From Escherichia phage P479, in sequence record MW269952.1: a stretch of DNA of 64,000 nucleotides; one strand, given 5' to 3'. Shown here piece after piece: positions 2,297 to 64,000 of the stretch (the stretch's first letter is position 1; each line of letters opens with the position of its first letter). The notes below the pieces were generated by a model. It did not search any database. It was not told where the DNA came from and worked only from the letters and a program-made list of their open reading frames with translations. A program made the translations under genes and the position numbers.

Positions 2297-2539
2297 ATGG
2301 AAACATTAATTGCGGGTACTGTTGTTCTTGGGGCTGGTTCTTTCTTCCTGGCTGCACTGACATATTTTCTGCCGTGGATTATCGCGCTGCTGCGTGGTAC
2401 CAAAAGTAATTGCGGAATCTTCTTTGTTAACCTCCTGTTAGGTTGGACAATGGTCGGATGGTTTATTGCATTTATCTGGGCACTCGTTGCTGAACGTAAA
2501 TCAAACGCACAAGTAATTATCATCAAGGAAGCAAAATGA
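2297..2539 (+). CDS. imm: Superinfection immunity (Imm)-like small membrane protein
   Basis: 80 aa, two TM helices, GW..AFIWAL motif; sits directly after gene 43 as T4 imm does. Confidence 0.6.
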   Translation: METLIAGTVVLGAGSFFLAALTYFLPWIIALLRGTKSNCGIFFVNLLLGWTMVGWFIAFIWALVAERKSNAQVIIIKEAK

Positions 2540-2679
2540 AGATAATTACAATTATTGTACTGATTGCATTTTTTAGTATGTCAATCTACTGGGCAATAAT
2601 GACTCCACATATGATTCCAACTTTAATTTTGGGTTGGGTATTTTTGGGGCTCCAAGCCCGCTATGAATGTTTTAATTAG
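2536..2679 (+). CDS. small membrane protein (47 aa)
   Basis: ATGA overlap with imm stop; hydrophobic; same AGGAAGCAAAATGAA initiation context as the next gene; not in ORF track (<60 aa). Confidence 0.4.
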   Translation: MKIITIIVLIAFFSMSIYWAIMTPHMIPTLILGWVFLGLQARYECFN

Positions 2680-2687
2680 GAAGCAAA

Positions 2688-3191
2688 ATGAAAAAGTTAG
2701 CTATCGCAGCTGTTATGCTGCTATCTGGTTGTGCTTACCAGGGCGATGTTGTTAATGCCAACGAGATTGGTAAAGCGCGAATTGCTGCAGACCGTCAGGT
2801 GCACAATGGTTCCTTTGATTTCAAAGGTGGTACTGGACTTATCTACAAACGCGACAACAATCAATGTGGAAACAACTGCGCGAAATATGCTCAACAAGAA
2901 ATTGAGTACAAACGCGAGCAAGCTGCGAAGCATGACGAAATCATTGCCAAGCTGGAAGCAGAAACCAAGCGACAAAATGACCTGGATACTGTTAACCAGA
3001 TTTCACAGGTCTGCATGTCATACATCAATATGCAGATAAACATCATGCGCGCAGAAGCTTATCAGGCAGCAGAGACGGGTTCTCCAAAAGCTAATGAGTA
3101 CCGCGATATGTATCAGCGTTCTGCTCAAAACCGTCTGAGCTATATTAATAAATGTGTAGCTAAAGAGAAAGCACGCCAAGGTATTAACTAA
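2688..3191 (+). CDS. putative lipoprotein
   Basis: Signal peptide with lipobox LLSGC; RBS-spaced ATG. Confidence 0.6.
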   Translation: MKKLAIAAVMLLSGCAYQGDVVNANEIGKARIAADRQVHNGSFDFKGGTGLIYKRDNNQCGNNCAKYAQQEIEYKREQAAKHDEIIAKLEAETKRQNDLDTVNQISQVCMSYINMQINIMRAEAYQAAETGSPKANEYRDMYQRSAQNRLSYINKCVAKEKARQGIN

Positions 3192-3212
3192 ACAAACTGC
3201 GAGAAGAATATT

Positions 3213-4599: not shown

Positions 4600-4933
4600 T
4601 ATCGATTTATCTGATTTAGATAATTTCGAGAAAGATGCGGAGGGAGCTAAGGCTCCTTCTGTACCTTACTACGAAAAAAGTTTGGAGATTATCCGGCAAT
4701 CCATGGGAACTGTGCGACAGGAAATTCTGTTATCACTCCCTGATGGGTCCAGTCACATTGTGTACGTAACCGGAATTAAAATTGAACCATCTGGAAAAGT
4801 TTCAGTTGATTTCGGCACCCCTTCTGAAGACCGCAAAGCGGAGCTTGCAGTGCATGTAGAAAAGTGTGTTACAATGCAAATACAAGATGAAATTGATAAG
4901 ATTAAAATGAAAAAGAGGTGGTGGAAGTGGTAG
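4589..4933 (+). CDS. 40: gp40-like protein (head vertex assembly chaperone in T4)
   Basis: 114 aa between uvsX and 41; assignment by position and size. Confidence 0.5.
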   Translation: MMNDIDLSDLDNFEKDAEGAKAPSVPYYEKSLEIIRQSMGTVRQEILLSLPDGSSHIVYVTGIKIEPSGKVSVDFGTPSEDRKAELAVHVEKCVTMQIQDEIDKIKMKKRWWKW

Positions 4934-51758: not shown

Positions 51759-52014
51759 TATGACTAAAGATGATTTCCTGGATGCAGTAGAAAAGGCGAG
51801 TGAACAGTTTGAAGTAATGGGTGTACGTTTACATAAAGACAGAAATTATGGTCTGGATGTTCAAACATACTCATTATGGCTTGTTGGTGAACATAGTCTT
51901 GCAACCAATCTGGTGATGGGTGTAGATACCTATCCTTTATTAGTTAAGTCCAGAAGTATGGAAAAAGCCACCAAGGAAATGACTAAACTTGGAAAATGGC
52001 TTGATAAAATTTAA
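51748..52014 (+). CDS. hypothetical protein (88 aa)
   Basis: ORF. Confidence 0.5.
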   Translation: MGSNMTKDDFLDAVEKASEQFEVMGVRLHKDRNYGLDVQTYSLWLVGEHSLATNLVMGVDTYPLLVKSRSMEKATKEMTKLGKWLDKI

Positions 52015-52089
52015 AAAGTAGTGTACAACCAAATGGGGCTATAATATAATGGTCCCATACTGAGTTACACAATAAAACTGGAGAATAAA
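52014..52089 (+). promoter_or_regulatory. early promoter cassette
   Basis: AAAAGTAGTGTACA; ATATAAT; box CCCATACTGAGTTACACAAT; RBS CTGGAGAATAAA. Confidence 0.6.
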
Positions 52090-52329
52090 ATGAAATTACA
52101 ACGTGAGAGCATCAAAGATTCAGAAGTTAAAGGCAAATGGTATTTCACAATCCAAGGTAACAATCCAGAAGCTCTGGAAAAAGCTGAAGAAGCTTTGTGC
52201 GCAATGGGTTGGAAAGATGAGTGTGATGGTTGTCCTCTTTATGAAGATGGTAGCTCATCTGGTTTCTGGATTCACCACTCTGACGTTGACCAATTTAAAG
52301 CTGACTGGAAAATCGCTAAGAAAGCGTGA
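52090..52329 (+). CDS. hypothetical protein (79 aa)
   Basis: ORF after promoter cassette. Confidence 0.5.
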   Translation: MKLQRESIKDSEVKGKWYFTIQGNNPEALEKAEEALCAMGWKDECDGCPLYEDGSSSGFWIHHSDVDQFKADWKIAKKA

Positions 52330-52339
52330 GGAAAATATA

Positions 52340-54115
<1,776 letters not shown>

Positions 54116-54116
<1 letters not shown>

Positions 54117-54313
54117 TGAATATTCGTATAGTAAACAATAGATACGGCACCAATGAGGTGCTGTTTGAAAAAATGAACATAAGTCTCGATGAACTGCCTA
54201 AAGAGAAAACAACGATTTTTGTCCAGGGTAAAGAACTTTATGTTATGCGTGTAATTAAATCGTATGAATATGATGATTTCAATCGGTCTATCTGGTTTAT
54301 TGTCGAGGTATAA
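54116..54313 (+). CDS. hypothetical protein (65 aa)
   Basis: ORF coupled to td stop. Confidence 0.45.
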
Positions 54314-54378
54314 TGAAAATTCAAATTGTCGGTATTTTATTTCTGGCCGTAATGGTCGGGCTTAACTTCCTACTATGA
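54313..54378 (+). CDS. tiny hydrophobic peptide (21 aa), doubtful
   Basis: TAATG and ATGA coupling; hand-translated. Confidence 0.2.
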   Translation: MKIQIVGILFLAVMVGLNFLL

Positions 54379-54674
54379 AAGCCTGTCGGGTTGTTAACAA
54401 ATATCAATCCGACTTTGATGTGAATATTCAACGGGGTACCATGTGGGGAAATCCATATAAAGATGGTACCCGAGAAGAAAACATAAAGAACTTTAAAGAA
54501 TATTTCATAGCAAAGATTAAATCGGGTGAAATCAAAAGAGAACACCTTGAAACTCTCCGCGGAATGCGATTAGCCTGCACATGCAAACCGAAGTCATGTC
54601 ATGGTGATGTTATCGCTTTGGTCGTTAACAAACTTTTCAAAGACACCTTTTCGCTCGAGGATTTGGGTACATAA
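54375..54674 (+). CDS. hypothetical Cys/His-cluster protein (99 aa)
   Basis: WGNPY and CTCKPKSCHGDV; resembles a DUF4326-like family from memory. Confidence 0.45.
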   Translation: MKACRVVNKYQSDFDVNIQRGTMWGNPYKDGTREENIKNFKEYFIAKIKSGEIKREHLETLRGMRLACTCKPKSCHGDVIALVVNKLFKDTFSLEDLGT

Positions 54675-54733
54675 ATACGATTCCGCTTCAGGGCACTGTG
54701 ATATAATTATTTAAAATTTAATGAGAGGAAATT

Positions 54734-54979
54734 ATGAATTTACGATTTAAACGCCAGTCAGGCGAAGTCATTTTTGAAATGCCACAATTTACCGAACAGG
54801 ATTTACCTGCGCCAAATTCTTATATCACTATTGACGGAATCAAATTTCTGGCCAAAAGACATGAACGTGTCTACTGTCATGATTCAGCCGGTGATGTCCA
54901 GTCATATTTTGACATCACTGTCCAGTCAGAAGAAGAATATAATGATGAAATGACTTCGGAACTACCAGAGACAATTTAA
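54734..54979 (+). CDS. hypothetical protein (81 aa)
   Basis: ORF with RBS GAGAGGAAATTATG. Confidence 0.5.
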   Translation: MNLRFKRQSGEVIFEMPQFTEQDLPAPNSYITIDGIKFLAKRHERVYCHDSAGDVQSYFDITVQSEEEYNDEMTSELPETI

Positions 54980-55012
54980 GGTTCCCAACCCTTTTGAACT
55001 ATAGAGGAAAAC

Positions 55013-57268
55013 ATGCAAGTACAAAAAAGTAGTGGTGTATCTCAAGATTTTGATGGCCAGAAAATTATTAAAGTTCTTTCTTGGTCATGTGAAGGAACCA
55101 ATATCGACCCATACGAATTATACGAAACAATCAAACCACATCTGCGCGATGGCATGACTACTCGCGATATTCAGACGGTTATCATCAAAGTGTCTGCTGG
55201 GCTTATCTCGGTTGAAGAACCAGATTACCAATATGTTGCAGCCAAAGCTACGATGTTTGCTCTGCGTAAAGATGTTTATGGACAATTTGAGCCGCGTTCT
55301 TTTATTGACCAGATTTCTTATTGTGTTAATGAAGGCAAATACGACCCGGAGCTGTTGTCAAGCTACTCGGCCGAAGAGATTACTTATCTGGAATCTCGTA
55401 TCAAGCATGAACGTGATTTTGACCTGACTTATGCAGGCGCGATGCAACTTAAAGAGAAATACCTGGTTAAAGATAAAACCACTGGTAAAATCTACGAGAC
55501 TCCACAATTCGCTATCATGGCTATCGGCATGGCACTGCACCAGGATGAACCAACGGACCGCCTGAAGCACGTTTGCCGTTTTTATGATGCAGTATCCACC
55601 CGACAGGTTTCGTTGCCCACACCTATCATGGCGGGCGCCAGAACACCTACCAGGCAGTTCAGTTCCTGTGTGGTTATCGAAGCGGCTGACTCCCTGAAGT
55701 CAATTAATAAGACTGCTAATTCAATCATCGAATATATCAGTAAGCGTGCAGGTATCGGTATCAACGTTGGCATGATTCGTGCCGAAGGTTCGAAAATCGG
55801 TATGGGCGAAGTCAAGCATACTGGTGTTATTCCGTTCTGGAAACATTTCCAAACGGCTGTTAAATCATGTTCACAAGGTGGAATCCGTGGCGGCGCTGCT
55901 ACTGCTTATTATCCTATTTGGCATTTGGAAGTTGAAAATTTACTCGTTCTGAAGAACAACAAGGGCGTTGAAGAAAACCGCATCAGACATATGGACTATG
56001 GTGTCCAGCTGAATAACCTGATGATGGAACGACTGGCTAAGAATGATTACATCACTCTGTTTAGTCCACACGAAGCTGGCGGTGAATTGTATTATTCATA
56101 TTTTGATAACCCGGATAAATTCCGCGAGTTATATGAAGCCTTAGAAAAAGACCCGACGGTTCGTAAGAAGCGCATCAAAGCAAAAGATGTATTCGAATTA
56201 TTCATGACCGAACGTTCCGGTACAGCCAGGGTTTATCCGCAGTTCGTCGATAACGTGAATGACTACACTCCGTTCATCCGTGACAAGGCTCCGATTCGTC
56301 AATCAAACCTTTGCTGCGAAATTGCAATCCCAACTACTGATGTGAACAGCGAAGACGCTGAAATCGGATTGTGCACATTGTCTGCATTTGTTCTGGATAG
56401 TTTTGACTGGCAGGACCAAGATAAGATTAACGAGCTAGCCGAAGTTCAAGTTCGTGCACTTGACAACCTGTTGGACTATCAGGGTTATCCGGTTAAAGAA
56501 GCTCTGAAAGCCAAAAAACGCCGCAACCTGGGTGTTGGGGTTACTAACTATGCTGCATGGTTGGCAAGCAATTTCGCTTCCTATGCTGATGCAAATGATT
56601 TAACGCATGAACTGTTCGAGAGATTACAATATGGCCTTATCCGTGCATCAATCAAGCTCGCCAAAGAAAAAGGACCTTGCGAATATTATTCAGACACTCG
56701 TTGGGCTCGAGGCGAATTACCTATCGACTGGTACAATAAAAAGATTGACCAAATCGCAGCTCCAAACTACGTTTGTGACTGGGCGCAGTTGCGGGAAGAC
56801 CTGGTTGAATATGGCATCCGTAATAGCACATTATCAGCACTTATGCCTTGTGAGTCATCTTCCCAAGTTTCTAACAGTACAAACGGTATCGAACCTCCGC
56901 GTGGACCAGTCTCTATTAAAGAGTCAAAAGAGGGTTCCTTTAATCAAGTCGTGCCCAATATTGAGCACAATAAAGGATTGTACGATTACGCATGGGTGCT
57001 AGCTAAGCAGGGTAACAAACCTTATCTGACCCAAGTCGCGATTATGTTGAAATGGATTTGCCAGTCGGCATCAGCAAACACGTATTATGACCCGCAGAAT
57101 TATCCGAAAGGAAAAGTTCCGATGTCAGTTATGCTTGACGACTTGATGTATGGTTGGTACTACGGAATCAAGAATTTTTACTATCACAATACTCGTGATG
57201 GCTCGGGAACAGACGATTACGAAATCGAAGCTCCTAAAGCAGAAGACTGCTCCGCCTGTAAACTGTAA
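55013..57268 (+). CDS. nrdA: Ribonucleotide reductase large subunit NrdA
   Basis: 751 aa; N-terminal ATP cone; class Ia core incl. NLCCEI; terminal Cys pair. Confidence 0.93.
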   Translation: MQVQKSSGVSQDFDGQKIIKVLSWSCEGTNIDPYELYETIKPHLRDGMTTRDIQTVIIKVSAGLISVEEPDYQYVAAKATMFALRKDVYGQFEPRSFIDQISYCVNEGKYDPELLSSYSAEEITYLESRIKHERDFDLTYAGAMQLKEKYLVKDKTTGKIYETPQFAIMAIGMALHQDEPTDRLKHVCRFYDAVSTRQVSLPTPIMAGARTPTRQFSSCVVIEAADSLKSINKTANSIIEYISKRAGIGINVGMIRAEGSKIGMGEVKHTGVIPFWKHFQTAVKSCSQGGIRGGAATAYYPIWHLEVENLLVLKNNKGVEENRIRHMDYGVQLNNLMMERLAKNDYITLFSPHEAGGELYYSYFDNPDKFRELYEALEKDPTVRKKRIKAKDVFELFMTERSGTARVYPQFVDNVNDYTPFIRDKAPIRQSNLCCEIAIPTTDVNSEDAEIGLCTLSAFVLDSFDWQDQDKINELAEVQVRALDNLLDYQGYPVKEALKAKKRRNLGVGVTNYAAWLASNFASYADANDLTHELFERLQYGLIRASIKLAKEKGPCEYYSDTRWARGELPIDWYNKKIDQIAAPNYVCDWAQLREDLVEYGIRNSTLSALMPCESSSQVSNSTNGIEPPRGPVSIKESKEGSFNQVVPNIEHNKGLYDYAWVLAKQGNKPYLTQVAIMLKWICQSASANTYYDPQNYPKGKVPMSVMLDDLMYGWYYGIKNFYYHNTRDGSGTDDYEIEAPKAEDCSACKL

Positions 57269-57909
57269 TGAATTATCAAAACATTTATAATAATTTAATA
57301 TCCCGGGGTAAAACCCGGGAACCTTTAACTGAGTATAAAGAGATTCATCATATTATCCCAAGATGTATGGGTGGCACTGATGAAAAGACAAACCTTGTTG
57401 AGTTAACAGGCCGCGAACATTTCATTGCACATTGGCTTCTTACAAAATTTACCAATTCTGCTGGACTTAATCAAGCCTTTGGTATGATGTGTCTTACCAA
57501 TAAAGGTAGACAATACAATGTTTCTTCTAGACTATACGAAATTGGCAGAAAGCTTTTATCGGAGTCTATGACAGGACGAAAAATGTCTGAGGAAACTAAG
57601 AAGAAAATTAGTGAGACTCTTAAAGGAAGAGAATTCACAAAAGAGCATATTGCTCGTATGCGGAAGCCAAAAACTGAAAAAGCCAAAAAGAATATCGCTG
57701 CAGCTAAGGTTGGTGCGCTTAATCCAATGTATGGTACAATATCTCCAACAAGAGATGTTCCACATACAAAAGAAACATGCGAATTGATTTCTTTAAAAAC
57801 CAAACAAGCCACTGATTATCCGCCCTGTCCACATTGTGGTAAAAAGGTCAATAAGGGTAACGCATTGAGATGGCATTATGATAAATGCAAATTTAAGGAC
57901 TTAAAATGA
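57268..57909 (+). CDS. HNH homing endonuclease (MobE-like) with NUMOD3-type repeats
   Basis: EIHHIIPRCMGG..NLVELTGREHFIAHW; repeats GRKMSEETKKKISETLKG; Zn-finger CPHCGKK; wedged between nrdA and nrdB. Confidence 0.8.
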   Translation: MNYQNIYNNLISRGKTREPLTEYKEIHHIIPRCMGGTDEKTNLVELTGREHFIAHWLLTKFTNSAGLNQAFGMMCLTNKGRQYNVSSRLYEIGRKLLSESMTGRKMSEETKKKISETLKGREFTKEHIARMRKPKTEKAKKNIAAAKVGALNPMYGTISPTRDVPHTKETCELISLKTKQATDYPPCPHCGKKVNKGNALRWHYDKCKFKDLK

Positions 57910-59084
57910 GTACAGTTTTTAACACCAAACAAGTTGATGTTTTGGAGGAGCCGATGTTCTTCGGTTCTGGATTGGGCATCGCCCGTTATGATATCCAACG
58001 TCATAAGGTATTTGAAGAACTTACTGAAAAATCCCTCTCATTTTTCTGGCGACCTGAGGAAGTAAACCTGATGATGGACGGAGCTCAATTTAATAAGCTT
58101 CCTGAACATCAACAAAATATTTTTACCAACAACCTGAAATACCAATCACTTCTGGATAGTATACAGGGTCGTGCTCCAGCTGCAGCATTAGCCGCATTAG
58201 TTTCTGACCCAAGTCTTGATACATGGATTCAGACCTGGACATTCAGCGAGACAATTCACTCTCGTTCTTATACGCACATCATGCGAAATCTCTATACTGA
58301 CCCGGCGAAGGTATTCGACGAAATCCTGTTAGATGATGCAATCATGAAGCGCGCAGAATCCATTGGTCATTACTATGATGATGTTCTGAATAAAACTCGT
58401 CAATGGCAAAACCAGATTGCTTTTGTTGAACTGGCCAAAGAAACTCCCGAAGCGGACGAACGTTTGGAACGAGCTATCAAACAAGAAGCTATCGCCAAAC
58501 GAGCATTGATGAAGTCTCTTTATCTCTGCCTGCATGTTATTAACGCCCTGGAAGCTATTCGTTTTTATGTATCTTTCGCATGTACTTTCAACTTCCATAA
58601 GAACATGGAAATCATGGAAGGTAATGCGAAGATAATGAAGTTCATCGCCCGTGATGAACAGCTTCACCTTAAGGGGACACAATATATTCTTCGTCAGCTG
58701 CAAACTGGTGTAGACGGTGACGAATGGGTTAAAATCGCTCACGAATGCGAAGCAGAAGCCGCAGCTATTTTCATGGAAGTTAATCGCCAGGAAAAAGAAT
58801 GGGCCGTGCATCTGTTTAAAGATGGTGGACTCCCTGGGTTGAGCGTCGAGATTCTTAACCGCTTCATCGATTACCTGACAGTTTCTCGTATGAAGCAATG
58901 CGGTCTCCCTTGTGAAATCGTGTTAGAATCTACTAAGCACCCGATTCCATGGATTCGCGAATATCTTAACTCTGATAATGTGCAATCTGCCCCACAAGAA
59001 GTTGAGTTGTCTGCTTACCTGGTAGCCCAGATTGACAATGACGTCGATGAGAATGTTCTTGCTGGTTTCCGTAAATATCTATAA
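57906..59084 (+). CDS. nrdB: Ribonucleotide reductase small subunit NrdB
   Basis: 392 aa; di-iron ligands; uninterrupted. Confidence 0.92.
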   Translation: MSTVFNTKQVDVLEEPMFFGSGLGIARYDIQRHKVFEELTEKSLSFFWRPEEVNLMMDGAQFNKLPEHQQNIFTNNLKYQSLLDSIQGRAPAAALAALVSDPSLDTWIQTWTFSETIHSRSYTHIMRNLYTDPAKVFDEILLDDAIMKRAESIGHYYDDVLNKTRQWQNQIAFVELAKETPEADERLERAIKQEAIAKRALMKSLYLCLHVINALEAIRFYVSFACTFNFHKNMEIMEGNAKIMKFIARDEQLHLKGTQYILRQLQTGVDGDEWVKIAHECEAEAAAIFMEVNRQEKEWAVHLFKDGGLPGLSVEILNRFIDYLTVSRMKQCGLPCEIVLESTKHPIPWIREYLNSDNVQSAPQEVELSAYLVAQIDNDVDENVLAGFRKYL

Positions 59085-59086
59085 GG

Positions 59087-59107
59087 AAAGGGCTTCGGCC
59101 CTTTTTG
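59087..59107 (+). terminator. intrinsic terminator (after nrdB)
   Basis: AAAGGGC-TTCG-GCCCTTT then TTT. Confidence 0.7.
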
Positions 59108-59110
59108 CCC

Positions 59111-59521
59111 ATGAAACAAATCGCTGATGAATACAGTTTTATAAAATATGCGGAGTTAGAGTTAGTCGATGGTAAAATCCCTATCCTTACTCTCGCAAAC
59201 AAGAAAAATGTTATCTATGCTATTTCAGTTGATGATGAACTAGTGTATATTGGTAAGACGAACAACCTTAAGAAGCGTATCAACTATTACCGGACTGCAA
59301 TTAACCGAATTGAACAGACGAGTGATTCAAACAAATCCCGGATGATACATGAAGCTTTACAAGAAGGTAAAAAGGTGATATTCTATGCACGACAATGTTT
59401 CAATCTGTCAATGACCAATGAACTTGGCACAATGTCAGTCGAAACGATGTCTCTGGAAGAGCCGATGTTCATCAAGCTTTTTAATCCCCCGTGGAATTAC
59501 CAACATAAGGTGAAGAAATGA
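59111..59521 (+). CDS. denA: Endonuclease II DenA (GIY-YIG family)
   Basis: 136 aa from ATG 59111 (T4 DenA 136 aa); VIYAISVDDELVYIGKT; adjacent to nrdB. Confidence 0.7.
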   Translation: MKQIADEYSFIKYAELELVDGKIPILTLANKKNVIYAISVDDELVYIGKTNNLKKRINYYRTAINRIEQTSDSNKSRMIHEALQEGKKVIFYARQCFNLSMTNELGTMSVETMSLEEPMFIKLFNPPWNYQHKVKK

Positions 59522-60654
59522 TTGAATTATATGATAACTTAATGAAGCTTTGCGCCGAATCCGATAAAGGTAAGTTTTTCTATACGGATTTTGTTTCTCC
59601 ATTTGAAACTAAGTTCCGCATCTTTAGCTATAACTATGCTTCCTATAGTGATTGGCTTCTTGATGATGCGCTGGAGTGCCGTGGCATTATGTTTGAAATG
59701 GATGACAATGGTCCAGTTCGCATTGCCGCTCGTCCTATGGAAAAATTCTTTAATCTGGGTGAGAATCCAATGACCATGGACCTTAACCTTGATGAGGTTG
59801 TCCTGGTTACTGCAAAAGCTGATGGTAGCTTGGTTTCTACTTATATGGACCAGACTAATATCGCCTTTAAATCCAAAGGGTCAATCAAAAGCTCCCAAGC
59901 TGCTGAATCCTTGCAGGTGTTTAAACAAGAGCATCGCAGTGCATTCAGGGCTCGCGTAACTGAAATTACTGAAGCTGGTTATACATGCAATATGGAATAT
60001 GTTGCACCAACCAACCGTATTGTTTTGCCTTACCAGGAACGTGACCTGATTTTACTGAACGTTCGTCATAATGAAACGGGTGAATATATTCCTTATCGGG
60101 AACTGTTCAAAGATGCTGCACTCCGTCCTTTCCTGGTTGAAGCATATGACCCGGCGAGCATTGAGAATGTTCGTGGTATGAAAGAGATTGAAGGCTTCGT
60201 CTACGAGTTGGTAAGTGGTCAGAAGTTCAAGCTGAAAACAGAATGGTATTGTGCTCTGCACCATACTAAAGACTCCATTAATAATAATGAGCGTCTGTTT
60301 GAAGTTGTTGTTGCTGGCGGCGCAGATGATGTTATTGCCATGTTTACTGGTGATGATTATGCTCGCGAAAAGGTTAATGCCTTTACCATTGTACATCTGG
60401 ATTATCTGTCTAATACGCTGGGATTGTTGCTTGATGCCCAGAAACAATTGGCAGGAAAAGACCGTCGTGAGTTTGCGATTAAAGGTCAAGAGTTGTGTAA
60501 ACCATATCCGGGATTGTTCTCCGTATTAATGAACACCTATCAACGCCCACAGGAAACTGAACAAACGATTGATCAAATCAATAAAGTTTTCCTTAAAAAT
60601 CATAAACTTTACATTCCGTCGGACTACCAAGCGGAAGTAATCCTTCCTGAATAA
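59518..60654 (+). CDS. rnlA: RNA ligase 1 (gp63)
   Basis: 378 aa; RIFSYNYASYSDWLL, ECRGIMFEMD, ligase lysine motif KADGSL match T4 Rnl1. Confidence 0.9.
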   Translation: MIELYDNLMKLCAESDKGKFFYTDFVSPFETKFRIFSYNYASYSDWLLDDALECRGIMFEMDDNGPVRIAARPMEKFFNLGENPMTMDLNLDEVVLVTAKADGSLVSTYMDQTNIAFKSKGSIKSSQAAESLQVFKQEHRSAFRARVTEITEAGYTCNMEYVAPTNRIVLPYQERDLILLNVRHNETGEYIPYRELFKDAALRPFLVEAYDPASIENVRGMKEIEGFVYELVSGQKFKLKTEWYCALHHTKDSINNNERLFEVVVAGGADDVIAMFTGDDYAREKVNAFTIVHLDYLSNTLGLLLDAQKQLAGKDRREFAIKGQELCKPYPGLFSVLMNTYQRPQETEQTIDQINKVFLKNHKLYIPSDYQAEVILPE

Positions 60655-60659
60655 TAAAA

Positions 60660-60725
60660 AAGGGGTGTACAAGCCCCTTCTTTCTATACATAATGGTTCC
60701 ATCAACTACTGATGAGGACTAAAAC
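60660..60725 (+). promoter_or_regulatory. terminator-like hairpin carrying -35 in its loop, plus -10 and leader box
   Basis: AGGGGtgtacaaGCCCCTT; CATAAT 60689-60694 (18-bp spacer); box CCATCAACTACTGATGAGGA. Confidence 0.6.
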
Positions 60726-60959
60726 ATGTTAAACTTAATTACAAATGAAAGAGTTACACAGGCATATGGTGACAGTAATGACGGAATCTATGTCTACAAG
60801 GGAGACCGCCGGATTGGTTTCATTACTGACCTGAAGGCCAAATTGTTAAAAGAACTGAAAGCTCAAACAGGTGATTCTGGGTTTAGAGCAAGAGCCAAAA
60901 AGAAAGATGAACGCCTGGGTGCCAACTCTTTTGGTCCTAGAGGTTACAACCGCTACTAA
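60726..60959 (+). CDS. hypothetical basic protein (77 aa)
   Basis: Shares DGIYVYKG..GF.TDL N-terminal module with the next ORF. Confidence 0.5.
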   Translation: MLNLITNERVTQAYGDSNDGIYVYKGDRRIGFITDLKAKLLKELKAQTGDSGFRARAKKKDERLGANSFGPRGYNRY

Positions 60960-60972
60960 TGAGGAAAATATT

Positions 60973-61476
60973 ATGAATATGCAACTGATTTCAAATGATA
61001 TGATTGTTGATGTATATGGTGACCGCCATGACGGAATCTATGTTTATAAAGGTTCCAAAAATGTTGGGTTCCTTACTGACTTAAGAAAGAAACTGGCGTC
61101 TGATAATAAGTTGAAGGCGAAACAAAAAGAATATCGTGATAAGAAATCAGAAGAGCGGAAAGAAGCCCTTCATGAATCTGTTCCCGAAATGGTTGACTTC
61201 TTAAAGAACCATTTGGTTAAATATGATGCAGAAGTGTTCATCAATCAGACCCAACCTAATGTGCATATCAATGGATGTGTTTGTTATGTTGTGGTTGAAC
61301 CCCTGACACTTCAACACCGCCTGGGAATTAAACACCCAGTGTTAACCCAGGATGATATGGCGGATGAAGTTGGTAATCAGTTCCGCATTTCAACATCTGA
61401 CAGTACAAATCACATCCTCCTGAATGGTTTATCCCAGGATGATATTGTTGAGGTAATCATCAAGTTATGCAAATAA
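60973..61476 (+). CDS. hypothetical protein (167 aa)
   Basis: In-frame ATG 60973; occupies the T4 alc position, similarity not assessed. Confidence 0.5.
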   Translation: MNMQLISNDMIVDVYGDRHDGIYVYKGSKNVGFLTDLRKKLASDNKLKAKQKEYRDKKSEERKEALHESVPEMVDFLKNHLVKYDAEVFINQTQPNVHINGCVCYVVVEPLTLQHRLGIKHPVLTQDDMADEVGNQFRISTSDSTNHILLNGLSQDDIVEVIIKLCK

Positions 61477-61820
61477 GTAATCTCACCACAGGGCTTATGC
61501 TCGCCCTGGTAGTAACTGCTGGTAGTGGTTTCTATCTAAAAGCAAAAGTGGATAATCTCAAGACGGCGGTGGCGGAAGTCACCAAAGTCGCAGAAGATAA
61601 TGCGAAAAATCTGCAATCAGTAAAAGACCAGGTTAATCAAATTAATCTCCTTGACCAACAGCGACAGGAATATGTTGAACACCTGCAGAAGGAAAATGAT
61701 AAACTTCGCGCAGATGCAAAACGTACTAAGGTTGTGGCAGCGAAGCCTAAATTAGTCGAAAAACAGATTAATCAGTCATTTGATAAGTTCGCCCAGGACT
61801 TCCAGGAGCTCACCAAATGA
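61467..61820 (+). CDS. i-spanin (PseT.3-like)
   Basis: 117 aa; N-terminal TM then coiled coil; start overlaps next gene; adjacent to pseT. Confidence 0.6.
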   Translation: MQISNLTTGLMLALVVTAGSGFYLKAKVDNLKTAVAEVTKVAEDNAKNLQSVKDQVNQINLLDQQRQEYVEHLQKENDKLRADAKRTKVVAAKPKLVEKQINQSFDKFAQDFQELTK

Positions 61821-62107
61821 TGAAATCTATCCTGGCAGTATGTTTGGCTATTGGACTCGTTTCATGCGCCCAGAAGCCCGTTGTGGAGCCCACAATCCAA
61901 GTTCATCCTAATTGGCCCGTTGCATTGGCTGATTACAAACAGCAATGGGAAGTGAAGGTAATTGAGGGTCAAGCCTGGGTTGGTATGCCTTTTGAAGCAT
62001 CGCAAGAATTCAGGATTTGGATGAATGATGTAAAAAGGTATGTACATGACCAAAAAGGCATGTTATGTTATTATCGTTCTGAACTAAAAGAGGAACGTTG
62101 CAAATGA
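61817..62107 (+). CDS. o-spanin lipoprotein (PseT.2-like)
   Basis: 96 aa; lipobox LVSCA; ATGA-coupled to i-spanin. Confidence 0.6.
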   Translation: MMKSILAVCLAIGLVSCAQKPVVEPTIQVHPNWPVALADYKQQWEVKVIEGQAWVGMPFEASQEFRIWMNDVKRYVHDQKGMLCYYRSELKEERCK

Positions 62108-62211
62108 TTGAGTCTTGTATTGATGGGTCGGATGTCATTCTATTTGGCTTTACATGCTTTTGTTTTGGAATCATGCTTAGCATGTGTATAAATGGTATTT
62201 TTGGAAAGTAG
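62104..62211 (+). CDS. small Cys-rich membrane peptide (35 aa)
   Basis: ATGA-coupled; hand-translated. Confidence 0.3.
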   Translation: MIESCIDGSDVILFGFTCFCFGIMLSMCINGIFGK

Positions 62212-62274
62212 TTTACAAACTCTTGGGAGCAGAGTATAATGCTCCCACGGATTATAAAATTTGAGGAAATTATT
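62210..62274 (+). promoter_or_regulatory. early promoter plus stem-loop cassette (third relative of the 44-bp repeat)
   Basis: GTTTACAAACTCTTGGGAGCAGAGTATAATGCTCCCA. Confidence 0.6.

Positions 62275-64000
<1,726 letters not shown>

Follow-up and report, generated by a model that had tools for sequence, protein, structure and literature searches.

The DNA analysed here (the window, 64,000 nucleotides of Escherichia phage P479, record MW269952.1) belongs to a phage that resembles Gaprivervirus, and carries on its plus strand an ORF of 213 codons with an ATG start (57268-57909), which we assign to mobE, a free-standing HNH homing endonuclease gene. It lies between the genes for the two subunits of ribonucleotide reductase, both also ORFs on the plus strand: nrdA, for the large subunit (55013-57268, 751 aa, so annotated in relatives), and nrdB, for the small subunit (57906-59084, 392 aa, intronless). 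Both junctions can be read directly. The nrdA stop codon TAA (57266-57268) overlaps mobE by one base, as the A at 57268 is also the first base of the mobE ATG (ctgTAATGAatt), and the resulting TAATGA on the plus strand (57266-57271) includes a second in-frame stop for nrdA. At the other end, the mobE TGA (57907-57909) overlaps the nrdB ATG (57906-57908; aaaATGAgt), with four bases in common. The original prediction of an ORF that starts on the nrdA stop, ends 4 nt into nrdB and occupies the locus of T4 mobE is thus borne out, since in T4 and T6, too, mobE is flanked by nrdA and nrdB and reads in the direction of both.

The ORF could have been a part of one of its neighbours, an objection that the prediction had itself raised. 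The NrdA end (...SACKL*) and the NrdB start (MSTVFN...) are the same in relatives without the ORF, which therefore belongs to neither gene, and its frame differs from those of both. The TAATGA is identical in T4, T6, LHE83 and RZ, and the stop/start overlap is no peculiarity of this window, as the UAAUGA is also present in T4 mobE, where it has been taken to hint at translational coupling (PMC2988022). Upstream of the TAATGA no Shine-Dalgarno-like sequence was found, and nrdA probably supplies both the transcripts and the terminating ribosomes for the endonuclease gene.

A total of 374 homologs of the product were found, and it matches PHROG 655 ('homing endonuclease') with E = 1.4e-63. Of the three modules first proposed for it, the HNH core and the NUMOD3-like repeats could be recognised, and for the C-terminal zinc finger a conserved candidate motif. 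The HNH catalytic core (aa 21-58, 57328-57441, plus strand; EYKEIHHIIPRCMGGTDEKTNLVELTGREHFIAHWLL) scores 24.2 bits against Pfam HNH (PF01844) over aa 21-44, above the gathering score of 21.4, and the motif is retained in an alignment of 59 homologs, in which N42, E50, H51 and H55 are invariant and H27 and H28 are at least 90% conserved. The region of NUMOD3-type repeats (aa 100-181, 57565-57810, plus strand) is presumed to form an extended DNA-binding linker. Its segment aa 103-120 matches Pfam NUMOD3 (PF07460) with 27 bits, above the gathering score of 20.4, and further repeats are degenerate, being visible only as short helices in the AlphaFold2 model. The C-terminal CCHC motif (C187, C190, H203 and C207; 57826-57888, plus strand; CPHCGKKVNKGNALRWHYDKC) has the spacing C-x2-C-x12-H-x3-C. 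Its four residues are also at least 90% conserved in the 59 homologs, alongside conserved P188 and R201, and from this conserved pattern we infer a zinc finger, presumably a zinc-binding DNA-recognition module. Pfam zinc-finger models gave no significant match to the product (E = 0.08-0.2).

The AlphaFold2 model of the protein (mean pLDDT 90) shows the beta-beta-alpha arrangement of the HNH core, with strands at 24-28 and 43-47 and a helix at 48-61, and four short helices in the NUMOD3 region (108-118, 125-131, 137-146 and 168-181). A search of BFVD returned 83 structural matches at E <= 0.001; the best 50 of them are, where named, phage HNH/Mob-type endonucleases, and the matches listed include T4 MobB, MobC and the T4 nrdB.1 fragment. 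Searches of solved structures with the whole model gave no significant match, a phmmer search of PDB sequences gave only a marginal match to the McrA HNH domain (E = 0.64), and an NCBIfam search gave only sub-threshold matches, with TIGR01453 over aa 78-157.

The protein is 86% identical to the copy of Dhakavirus LHE83, 78% identical to T6 MobE (ABI48942) over 213 of 213 residues, and 63% identical overall to the contiguous full-length T4 MobE, in an alignment that keeps the HNH motif. The T4 mobE gene was the best of three matching places in a T4 record, which together with the full-length match to T6 identifies the window gene as a MobE ortholog and not as another Mob paralog. Relative to LHE83 and T6 its dN/dS is 0.05-0.08, with a dS of 1.6-1.9, values similar to those of nrdA and nrdB, and the ORF is under strong purifying selection.

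The window allele is of the 213-aa T6 type and not of the 232-aa T4 type. T6-type MobE, found in T6, LZ7, many Tequatrovirus genomes and Dhakavirus LHE83, likewise has 213 aa (642 nt) and occupies the nrdA-nrdB position. It overlaps its neighbours in TAATGA and ATGA as the window gene does, its domains follow one another in the order found here (HNH, NUMOD3 repeats, CCHC), and its ORF has a hairpin and a MotA-like box at matching positions. However, the DNA identity of the window copy to these genes is only 76-80%, with saturated synonymous sites, its hairpin has a 7-bp stem and a 6-nt loop instead of 9 bp and a 4-nt loop, and it resides in a Gaprivervirus-like phage, a genus without a sequenced record carrying T6-type MobE. 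T4 MobE, which has been experimentally characterised (Wilson and Edgell 2009, PMC2790892), has in common with the window protein the locus, the UAAUGA overlap, the N-terminal HNH domain and, with the CCHC motif, the last ~90 residues, as well as the internal terminator hairpin and the target-site polymorphism in the nrdB of the carrier. It is longer (232 aa), its middle part has diverged and it has one NUMOD3 repeat more; in the T4 reference record the gene is annotated as two pieces, mobE (141 aa) and nrdB.1 (83 aa). The other T4 Mob proteins, MobA-D, and a paralog at the window end also combine an N-terminal HNH domain with a NUMOD3-type linker, but they are only about 26-34% identical to the window MobE, have other insertion sites and presumably other targets.

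The nrdB gene of T4 is interrupted by a group I intron, which contains a defunct I-TevIII and which MobE mobilises in trans, whereas nrdB of the window is intronless. No Rfam family reached threshold in 52000-64000, and the nrdA and nrdB ORFs are contiguous, which indicates that there is no intron and that mobE is intergenic. An intron-encoded HNH endonuclease of the I-TevIII or I-HmuI type was also considered and rejected, the gene being outside any group I intron.

Several candidate expression signals lie inside mobE. A hairpin followed by ACCUUUAAC (57301-57329, plus strand; 7-bp stem 57301-57307/57314-57320, loop GUAAAA) is present in both the MFE and the centroid structures, at the ORF position of the 9-bp hairpin of T4 and T6, ~30 nt after the AUG. 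It keeps seven of the nine T4 base pairs, one of them through a compensatory change from A-U to G-C, but the stem is 7 bp versus 9 bp in T4 and only three U follow on its 3' side. A weak intrinsic terminator has been described inside T4 mobE (PMC2790892), and the window hairpin is by analogy its likely counterpart; our terminator scan did not flag it because the U-tract is too short for the rule applied. At the empty site of phage P896, the 38 nt between nrdA and nrdB, which phage 212 has in identical form, are no more stably folded than shuffled sequence (z = -0.2). Further downstream, a MotA-box-like sequence CGCTTAA-N12-TACAAT (57716-57740, plus strand) lies inside mobE, 190 nt upstream of the nrdB ATG. 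At equal distance T4 and T6 have TGCTTAA, likewise followed by N12-TACAAT, and LHE83 and L008 have CGCTTAA, with the C that the window also shows in place of the first T of the consensus. As a middle promoter of nrdB has been placed in the 3' part of mobE in T4 (PMC2790892), the CGCTTAA motif is a candidate for this promoter. The Shine-Dalgarno sequence of nrdB, AAGGA, can be read directly within the last mobE codons, together with the ATGA overlap (57895-57909, plus strand), and this 3' end of mobE is nearly identical in T4 and T6. Scanning for sigma-70 promoters yielded no site on the plus strand ahead of the mobE start, and the T4 late-promoter motif TATAAATA is absent from 56901-58000.

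The flanks of mobE differ from those of phages with an empty site. Compared with phages 212 and P896, nrdA is 96.6% identical overall at the DNA level and 97-100% identical over most of its length, but only 82-86% identical in an upstream patch (57061-57267, plus strand; nrdA nt 2049-2255), and 29 of the 76 mismatches fall in the last 207 nt. Similarly, nrdB is 96% identical overall to the genes of 212 and P896, with a downstream patch of 82-84% identity (57923-58105, plus strand; nrdB nt 18-200) versus 97-100% further on, and 32 of the 45 mismatches to phage 212 are found within nt 18-200. The two patches, the second of which includes the nick-site region, look as a co-conversion tract would, and we consider them putative tracts of this kind. 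Part of the upstream patch (nt 2049-2193) is also found in phage RZ, whose endonuclease gene is a different one, and the patch is therefore not assignable to a single MobE homing event.

The nick of T4 MobE was mapped to nt 122-126 of nrdB, with an AAG rule for codon 42 (PMC2790892). The homologous site in the window (codons 38-45, 58017-58040, plus strand) reads CTT ACT GAA AAA TCC CTC TCA, with AAA as codon 42 (58029-58031), whereas T2, the mapped substrate, as well as 212, P896 and RZ read TTA ACN GAA AAG CAR TTR TCA. An altered sequence is found in all five mobE-carrying genomes compared and the T2-type sequence in relatives without mobE, a pattern that agrees with Figure 8 as described in PMC2790892. 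The hairpin, the UAAUGA and the nick-site polymorphisms all recur independently at saturated synonymous divergence, which supports the view that they are selected adaptations and not accidents.

The presence of mobE is polymorphic among close relatives. In 31 of 36 Gaprivervirus-like records the 38-nt junction is intact and empty, in five it holds another HNH gene and in none the gene of the window, which is therefore not undergoing a sweep in this genus. One Logan contig carries a 99%-identical copy in a matching gene context. A recent transfer from Tequatrovirus or Dhakavirus was considered and rejected, as mobE (76-80% DNA identity, dS 1.6-1.9) is no closer to these phages than nrdA and nrdB are, and a recent transfer cannot be demonstrated when synonymous divergence is saturated in mobE and flanks alike.

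The HNH gene of the Gapriverviruses RZ, P8, DK-13 and TH15 is inserted at the site of the window mobE and overlaps nrdA and nrdB just as mobE does. The first ~58 residues of this RZ-type endonuclease are nearly identical to those of the window MobE, including the HNH motif and the hairpin, but the protein has 242 aa and an unrelated C-terminal half without the CCHC motif. Its homolog in phage P8, P0066, carries Pfam PF07453, and TIGR01453 matches the RZ-type endonuclease below threshold over aa 91-191. Since the carrier of the RZ-type gene keeps a T2-type nrdB at the MobE nick site, this endonuclease probably recognises a different target from MobE. Sandegren et al. are said to have reported in 2005 an endonuclease, Hef, that replaces mobE in phage U5. 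Hef is termed 'unique' in a review (PMC2988022), and a tblastn search with the RZ protein returned no record annotated as hef.

The first 174 nt of the window mobE are 91% identical to the RZ gene versus 78% to T6 mobE, and the T4-type and T6-type genes are 98% identical to each other over nt 1-141. The HNH module thus tracks the lineage of the host and the C-terminal module the type of endonuclease, which, with the mosaic 3' end of nrdA, would fit a chimeric origin of the window allele, in which a MobE-type gene arriving at the site would have recombined with an RZ-type gene already resident there, within the 5' part that codes for the HNH domain. We propose this origin only tentatively. Endonuclease genes competing for the nrdA-nrdB site would then exchange DNA-binding cassettes, with nrdA plus the common HNH-coding ~170 nt on one side, and nrdB on the other, serving as homology arms.

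Taking all these data together, the ORF very probably encodes a functional, modular MobE-type homing endonuclease, free-standing in the nrdA-nrdB space. The steps by which it would act are drawn from the work on T4 (PMC2790892, PMC2988022). By analogy with T4, mobE would have no promoter of its own, but be co-transcribed with nrdA and, through re-initiation at the UAAUG, yield little protein. The hairpin ~30 nt into the ORF would end some of the transcripts and so limit the amount of endonuclease, while the MotA-type promoter and the Shine-Dalgarno sequence in the 3' end of the ORF would restore the expression of nrdB. In a mixed infection with a relative lacking mobE, the C-terminal modules would bind the conserved nrdB stretch coding for FFWRPEE, and the HNH domain would nick the non-coding strand of nrdB around codon 42. 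Recombinational repair off the carrier genome would then copy mobE and a few hundred flanking bases into the recipient. The nrdB of the carrier would escape cutting because codons 39-44 are altered, by mostly synonymous changes plus Q43S. That the window MobE specifically nicks nrdB at codon 42 is likely, with a lesser confidence than its assignment as a homing endonuclease; in vitro activity of T4 MobE was never obtained, and a double-strand break or an indirect role was left possible (PMC2790892).

The nrdB signals inside mobE also bear on a different, improbable explanation, in which mobE has been domesticated or is decaying, no longer homes and is kept since its deletion would remove the nrdB promoter and ribosome-binding site. 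The nrdB middle promoter inside mobE has indeed been argued to select against deletion (PMC2790892), both the Shine-Dalgarno sequence and the MotA-like box of the window sit inside the ORF, and among the 36 records of related phages none has this allele, a sign of its rarity in the genus. However, selection on regulatory DNA alone would not hold dN/dS at 0.05-0.08 across 213 codons, every HNH and CCHC residue is retained, and the nrdB of the carrier still shows the target-site differences. Slightly less probable still is that the protein acts mainly as a weapon in competition and exclusion between phages, or as a cofactor of another nuclease, its spread being a side effect of damage to nrdB. 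T4 homing endonucleases contribute to marker exclusion, Wilson and Edgell left open an indirect role of MobE (PMC2790892), and both empty-site and RZ-type relatives keep the T2-like target and would be vulnerable; yet this amounts to the same biochemical mechanism seen from another angle, which sequence does not distinguish from homing, and no partner gene is evident beside the mobE ORF. That the ORF arose by chance or merely extends nrdA or nrdB, for which nothing speaks beyond the codon overlaps with both neighbours, is refuted by the two Pfam domains above their gathering scores, the PHROG 655 match, the 374 homologs, the constant NrdA and NrdB termini in phages lacking the ORF and a frame unlike that of either gene.

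MobE is already well studied, and as a homing endonuclease gene the window copy adds an intact example in a Gaprivervirus-like background, with little significance beyond its correct annotation: the ORF should be named mobE, HNH homing endonuclease, and neither a hypothetical protein nor part of the reductase. It may also offer a natural system for MobE homing and allele competition, as 31 of the 36 relatives are empty-site targets and five carry a competing endonuclease.

A second, paralogous Mob-like HNH endonuclease gene lies on the minus strand at the end of the window (63393-64000), truncated by its edge. The frame is open to the edge (63393-63998) and begins with the second half of the HNH motif; it is antisense to pseT, whose 3' end it overlaps by 87 nt. 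The fragment matches PHROG 655 (E = 2.8e-25) and is 30% identical to the mobE product in a tblastn search within the window (E = 3e-13). Only 10 related records have the gene in full, and most others lack it. Its full-length copy in phage 212 (241 aa; 34% identity to the mobE product, E = 2e-33) ends in CPHCGK...H..D.C, as the mobE product does, so that the predicted sharing of the C-terminal module by the two genes is confirmed, and this copy has a TATAAATA late-promoter motif of its own.

The ORF between nrdA (55013-57268, + strand) and nrdB (57906-59084, + strand) occupies 57268-57909 on the same strand and codes for a protein of 213 residues, which, judged by its sequence, is a MobE ortholog and a member of a well-characterised kind. 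It matches PHROG 655 'homing endonuclease' (E = 1.4e-63), and the HNH core and NUMOD3-like repeats of the original prediction were both recovered by Pfam models above the curated cut-offs (24.2 bits against 21.4 for HNH, 27 bits against 20.4 for NUMOD3). The protein shares 86% identity with the homolog of the Dhakavirus LHE83, 78% with T6 MobE, gap-free over 213/213 residues, and 63% with the contiguous T4 MobE (P0046), in line with the proposed relationship to the T4 protein. The HNH motif is preserved in an alignment of 59 homologs, where N42, E50, H51 and H55 are invariant; H27, H28, P31, G35 and G36 and, near the C-terminus, C187, P188, C190, R201, H203 and C207 are each conserved at 90% or more. 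The predicted C-terminal zinc finger is retained only as putative: we infer it from the conserved C-x2-C-x12-H-x3-C pattern, but Pfam zinc-finger models gave no significant match to the protein.

The AlphaFold2 model computed from the 59-homolog alignment (mean pLDDT 90) places strands 24-28 and 43-47 ahead of helix 48-61, as the beta-beta-alpha arrangement of an HNH core would have it; four short helices come next in the NUMOD3 region, and the CCHC motif holds a last helix at 196-206. With the whole, elongated model as query, solved structures yielded nothing informative. Among predicted viral structures there were 83 matches at E <= 0.001; every named entry of the 50 listed is a phage endonuclease of the HNH or Mob type, and T4 MobB, T4 MobC and T4 'nrdB.1' are among them, the last being the C-terminal piece of T4 MobE. 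In the T4 reference NC_000866 (5717-6417 of the extract, minus strand) MobE is split in two, as mobE (141 aa) and nrdB.1 (83 aa), with translation jumping among all three frames; the T4 record MZ375356 and protein P0046 show one contiguous 232-aa MobE, and the split is probably due to sequencing errors or strain-specific frameshifts.

The coordinates and the overlaps with both neighbours were correctly predicted, since the nrdA stop and the ORF start codon have one A in common (ctgTAATGAatt) and the ORF TGA overlaps the nrdB ATG (aaaATGAgt). The reading of the ORF as part of nrdA or nrdB can be dismissed, because the NrdA C-terminus (...SACKL) and the NrdB N-terminus (MSTVFN) are identical in relatives with no intervening gene; it is thus an independent gene that extends neither neighbour. 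The AAGGA Shine-Dalgarno sequence of nrdB (57895-57899) lies within its last codons. The surrounding order is frd, td, two small ORFs, nrdA, mobE, nrdB, a 138-aa GIY-YIG gene, RNA ligase 1 and, farther on, pseT, all on the + strand, and is the same as the early-gene order of T4. The GIY-YIG gene (59105-59521, + strand; Pfam PF01541; PHROG 1111, E = 6.7e-60) is in the position of T4 denA, and its product is a conserved host-DNA nuclease, the endonuclease II counterpart, and no further mobile endonuclease. In T4, td and nrdB both hold group I introns, with I-TevI and I-TevIII, whereas here td (53256-54116) and nrdB are both uninterrupted, and a scan of window 52000-64000 against Rfam showed no intron match.

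At the sequence level, the regulatory and target features of this mobE appear to agree with those published for T4, for which we relied on Wilson and Edgell (PMC2790892) and the review by Edgell, Gibb and Belfort (PMC2988022). In these accounts, T4 mobE lacks a promoter of its own and is transcribed together with nrdA, and the overlap of its AUG with the nrdA stop, UAAUGA, suggests that translation of the two genes is coupled. A hairpin that lies 27 nt past the AUG and occurs in all mobE-carrying phages is described as a weak intrinsic terminator, and nrdB has a middle promoter within the 3' part of the gene. The window shows the TAATGA overlap of T4 unchanged. At 57301-57320 (+ strand), the ORF position that the hairpin of T4 and T6 also occupies (UUCCCGAGC-UCAG-GCUCGGGAA, then CCUUUAUCC), the window has UCCCGGG-GUAAAA-CCCGGGA, then ACCUUUAAC, keeping 7 of the 9 T4/T6 pairs. 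One pair is changed on both sides, from A-U to G-C, and despite its being kept in this way the overlying peptide changes from SRAQARE to SRGKTRE. A MotA-box-like candidate promoter, CGCTTAA-N12-TACAAT (57716-57740, + strand), aligns with TGCTTAA-N12-TACAAT of T4 and T6; the window box is one base off consensus, and in all genomes compared the motif precedes the nrdB ATG by 190 nt. We infer that it corresponds to the published middle promoter of nrdB.

Codon 42 of nrdB is described as AAG in all mobE-less phages and variable in carriers (PMC2790892, PMC2988022). Codons 39-45 read TTA ACN GAA AAG CAR TTR TCA in T2, whose nrdB is the experimentally mapped MobE substrate, and in the Gaprivervirus relatives 212, P896 and RZ; they read CTT ACT GAA AAA TCC CTC TCA in the window and in a 3.6-kb Logan contig (SRR5008255), and CTT ATT GAG AAA TCT TTA TCA in T6. 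T4 and LHE83 show other differences, all five mobE-carrying genomes compared departing from the T2-type sequence, and the adjoining FFWRPEE-coding block is conserved throughout. The window phage is therefore predicted, as the T4 model would have it, to carry a 'resistant' version of the site, its nearest relatives being 'susceptible'.

The nrd flanks share 95-97% identity with Gaprivervirus members (vB_EcoM_RZ, P896, SP18, the VR phages and phage 212) and about 80% with Tequatrovirus (T4, T6) and Dhakavirus (LHE83). Product names in both the phage 212 record (PQ765507) and the T2 record (AP018813) seem shifted or scrambled relative to the genes: thymidylate synthase is the label of nrdA in phage 212 and of nrdB in T2, where nrdA is called single-stranded DNA-binding protein. 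We identified the genes in both records by length and sequence. Among 36 Gaprivervirus-like records of the phage collection, 31 have an uninterrupted nrdA-nrdB junction with a 38-nt spacer, five (RZ twice, P8, DK-13, TH15) another HNH gene, of 242 aa, in that position, and none a MobE-type gene between nrdA and nrdB. The sole near-identical copy (99% aa) is that of the Logan contig, likewise between nrdA and nrdB. Gapriverviruses would be mildly useful as natural empty-site and competing-allele partners for experiments.

Compared in 120-nt windows with the empty-site phages 212 and P896, nrdA and nrdB are 97-100% identical, but identity falls to 82-86% over the final ~200 nt of nrdA and to 82-84% over the initial ~200 nt of nrdB, two patches that hold 29 of the 76 mismatches in nrdA and 32 of the 45 in nrdB. 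The nrdB patch encloses the nick-site region and stops about 75 nt past it. Such patches would be the footprint expected of homing co-conversion. Within the upstream patch (57061-57267), nrdA nt 2049-2193 agree with RZ and nt 2199-2244 with phage 212, a mosaic that indicates more than one conversion event. Between the window and the Logan contig, which have the same mobE allele, about 20 positions differ in nrdA nt 2190-2253. These patterns suggest repeated events with differing end points.

A decaying remnant is contradicted by the dN/dS of mobE (0.049 against LHE83, 0.077 against T6), similar to nrdA (0.058) and nrdB (0.086), which indicates purifying selection on the protein. Against the alleles of Tequatrovirus and Dhakavirus, synonymous sites are saturated (dS 1.6-1.9), just as in the flanks, which gives no evidence of recent transfer from either group, and the donor lineage lies outside those sampled.

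The RZ-type gene (2469-3197 of the phage RZ extract) sits exactly at the nrdA-nrdB site, and its product has the first ~58 residues in common with the window MobE, including the HNH motif and the hairpin, whereas its C-terminal half is unrelated and lacks the CCHC motif; its carrier retains the T2-type target in nrdB. The first 174 nt of the window ORF are 91% identical to RZ and 78% to T6, and T4-type and T6-type MobE are 98% identical over the first 141 nt before a divergent middle. The HNH segment thus tracks the host lineage and the DNA-binding part the endonuclease type, a pattern consistent with recombination inside the HNH-coding region and fitting the published statement that the N-terminal domain is common to Mob proteins and the C-terminal one varies (PMC2790892). 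Exchange of cassettes between endonuclease genes at this site is a tentative and rather unlikely reading.

The predicted paralog with the same C-terminal module was found at the window end (63393-64000, − strand), beside pseT, where its C-terminal ~200 residues are included. A full copy of 241 aa, starting MNYALIYENL..., is present in phage 212 (3997-4719 of the extract, − strand), in a region 98.9% identical to the window; aligned with the window MobE it shows 34% identity (E = 2e-33), and both proteins end in CPHCGK...H..D.C. The paralog is antisense to all neighbours, its last 29 codons overlap the pseT 3' end, and it is complete in 10 related records only. The phage 212 copy has a T4 late-promoter motif (TATAAATA, ~4746-4753 of the extract) that starts 34 nt ahead of its ATG, and an AGAGGA ribosome-binding site lies between the two. 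The phage 212 record gives this paralog no gene annotation, marking it only as a small misc_feature.
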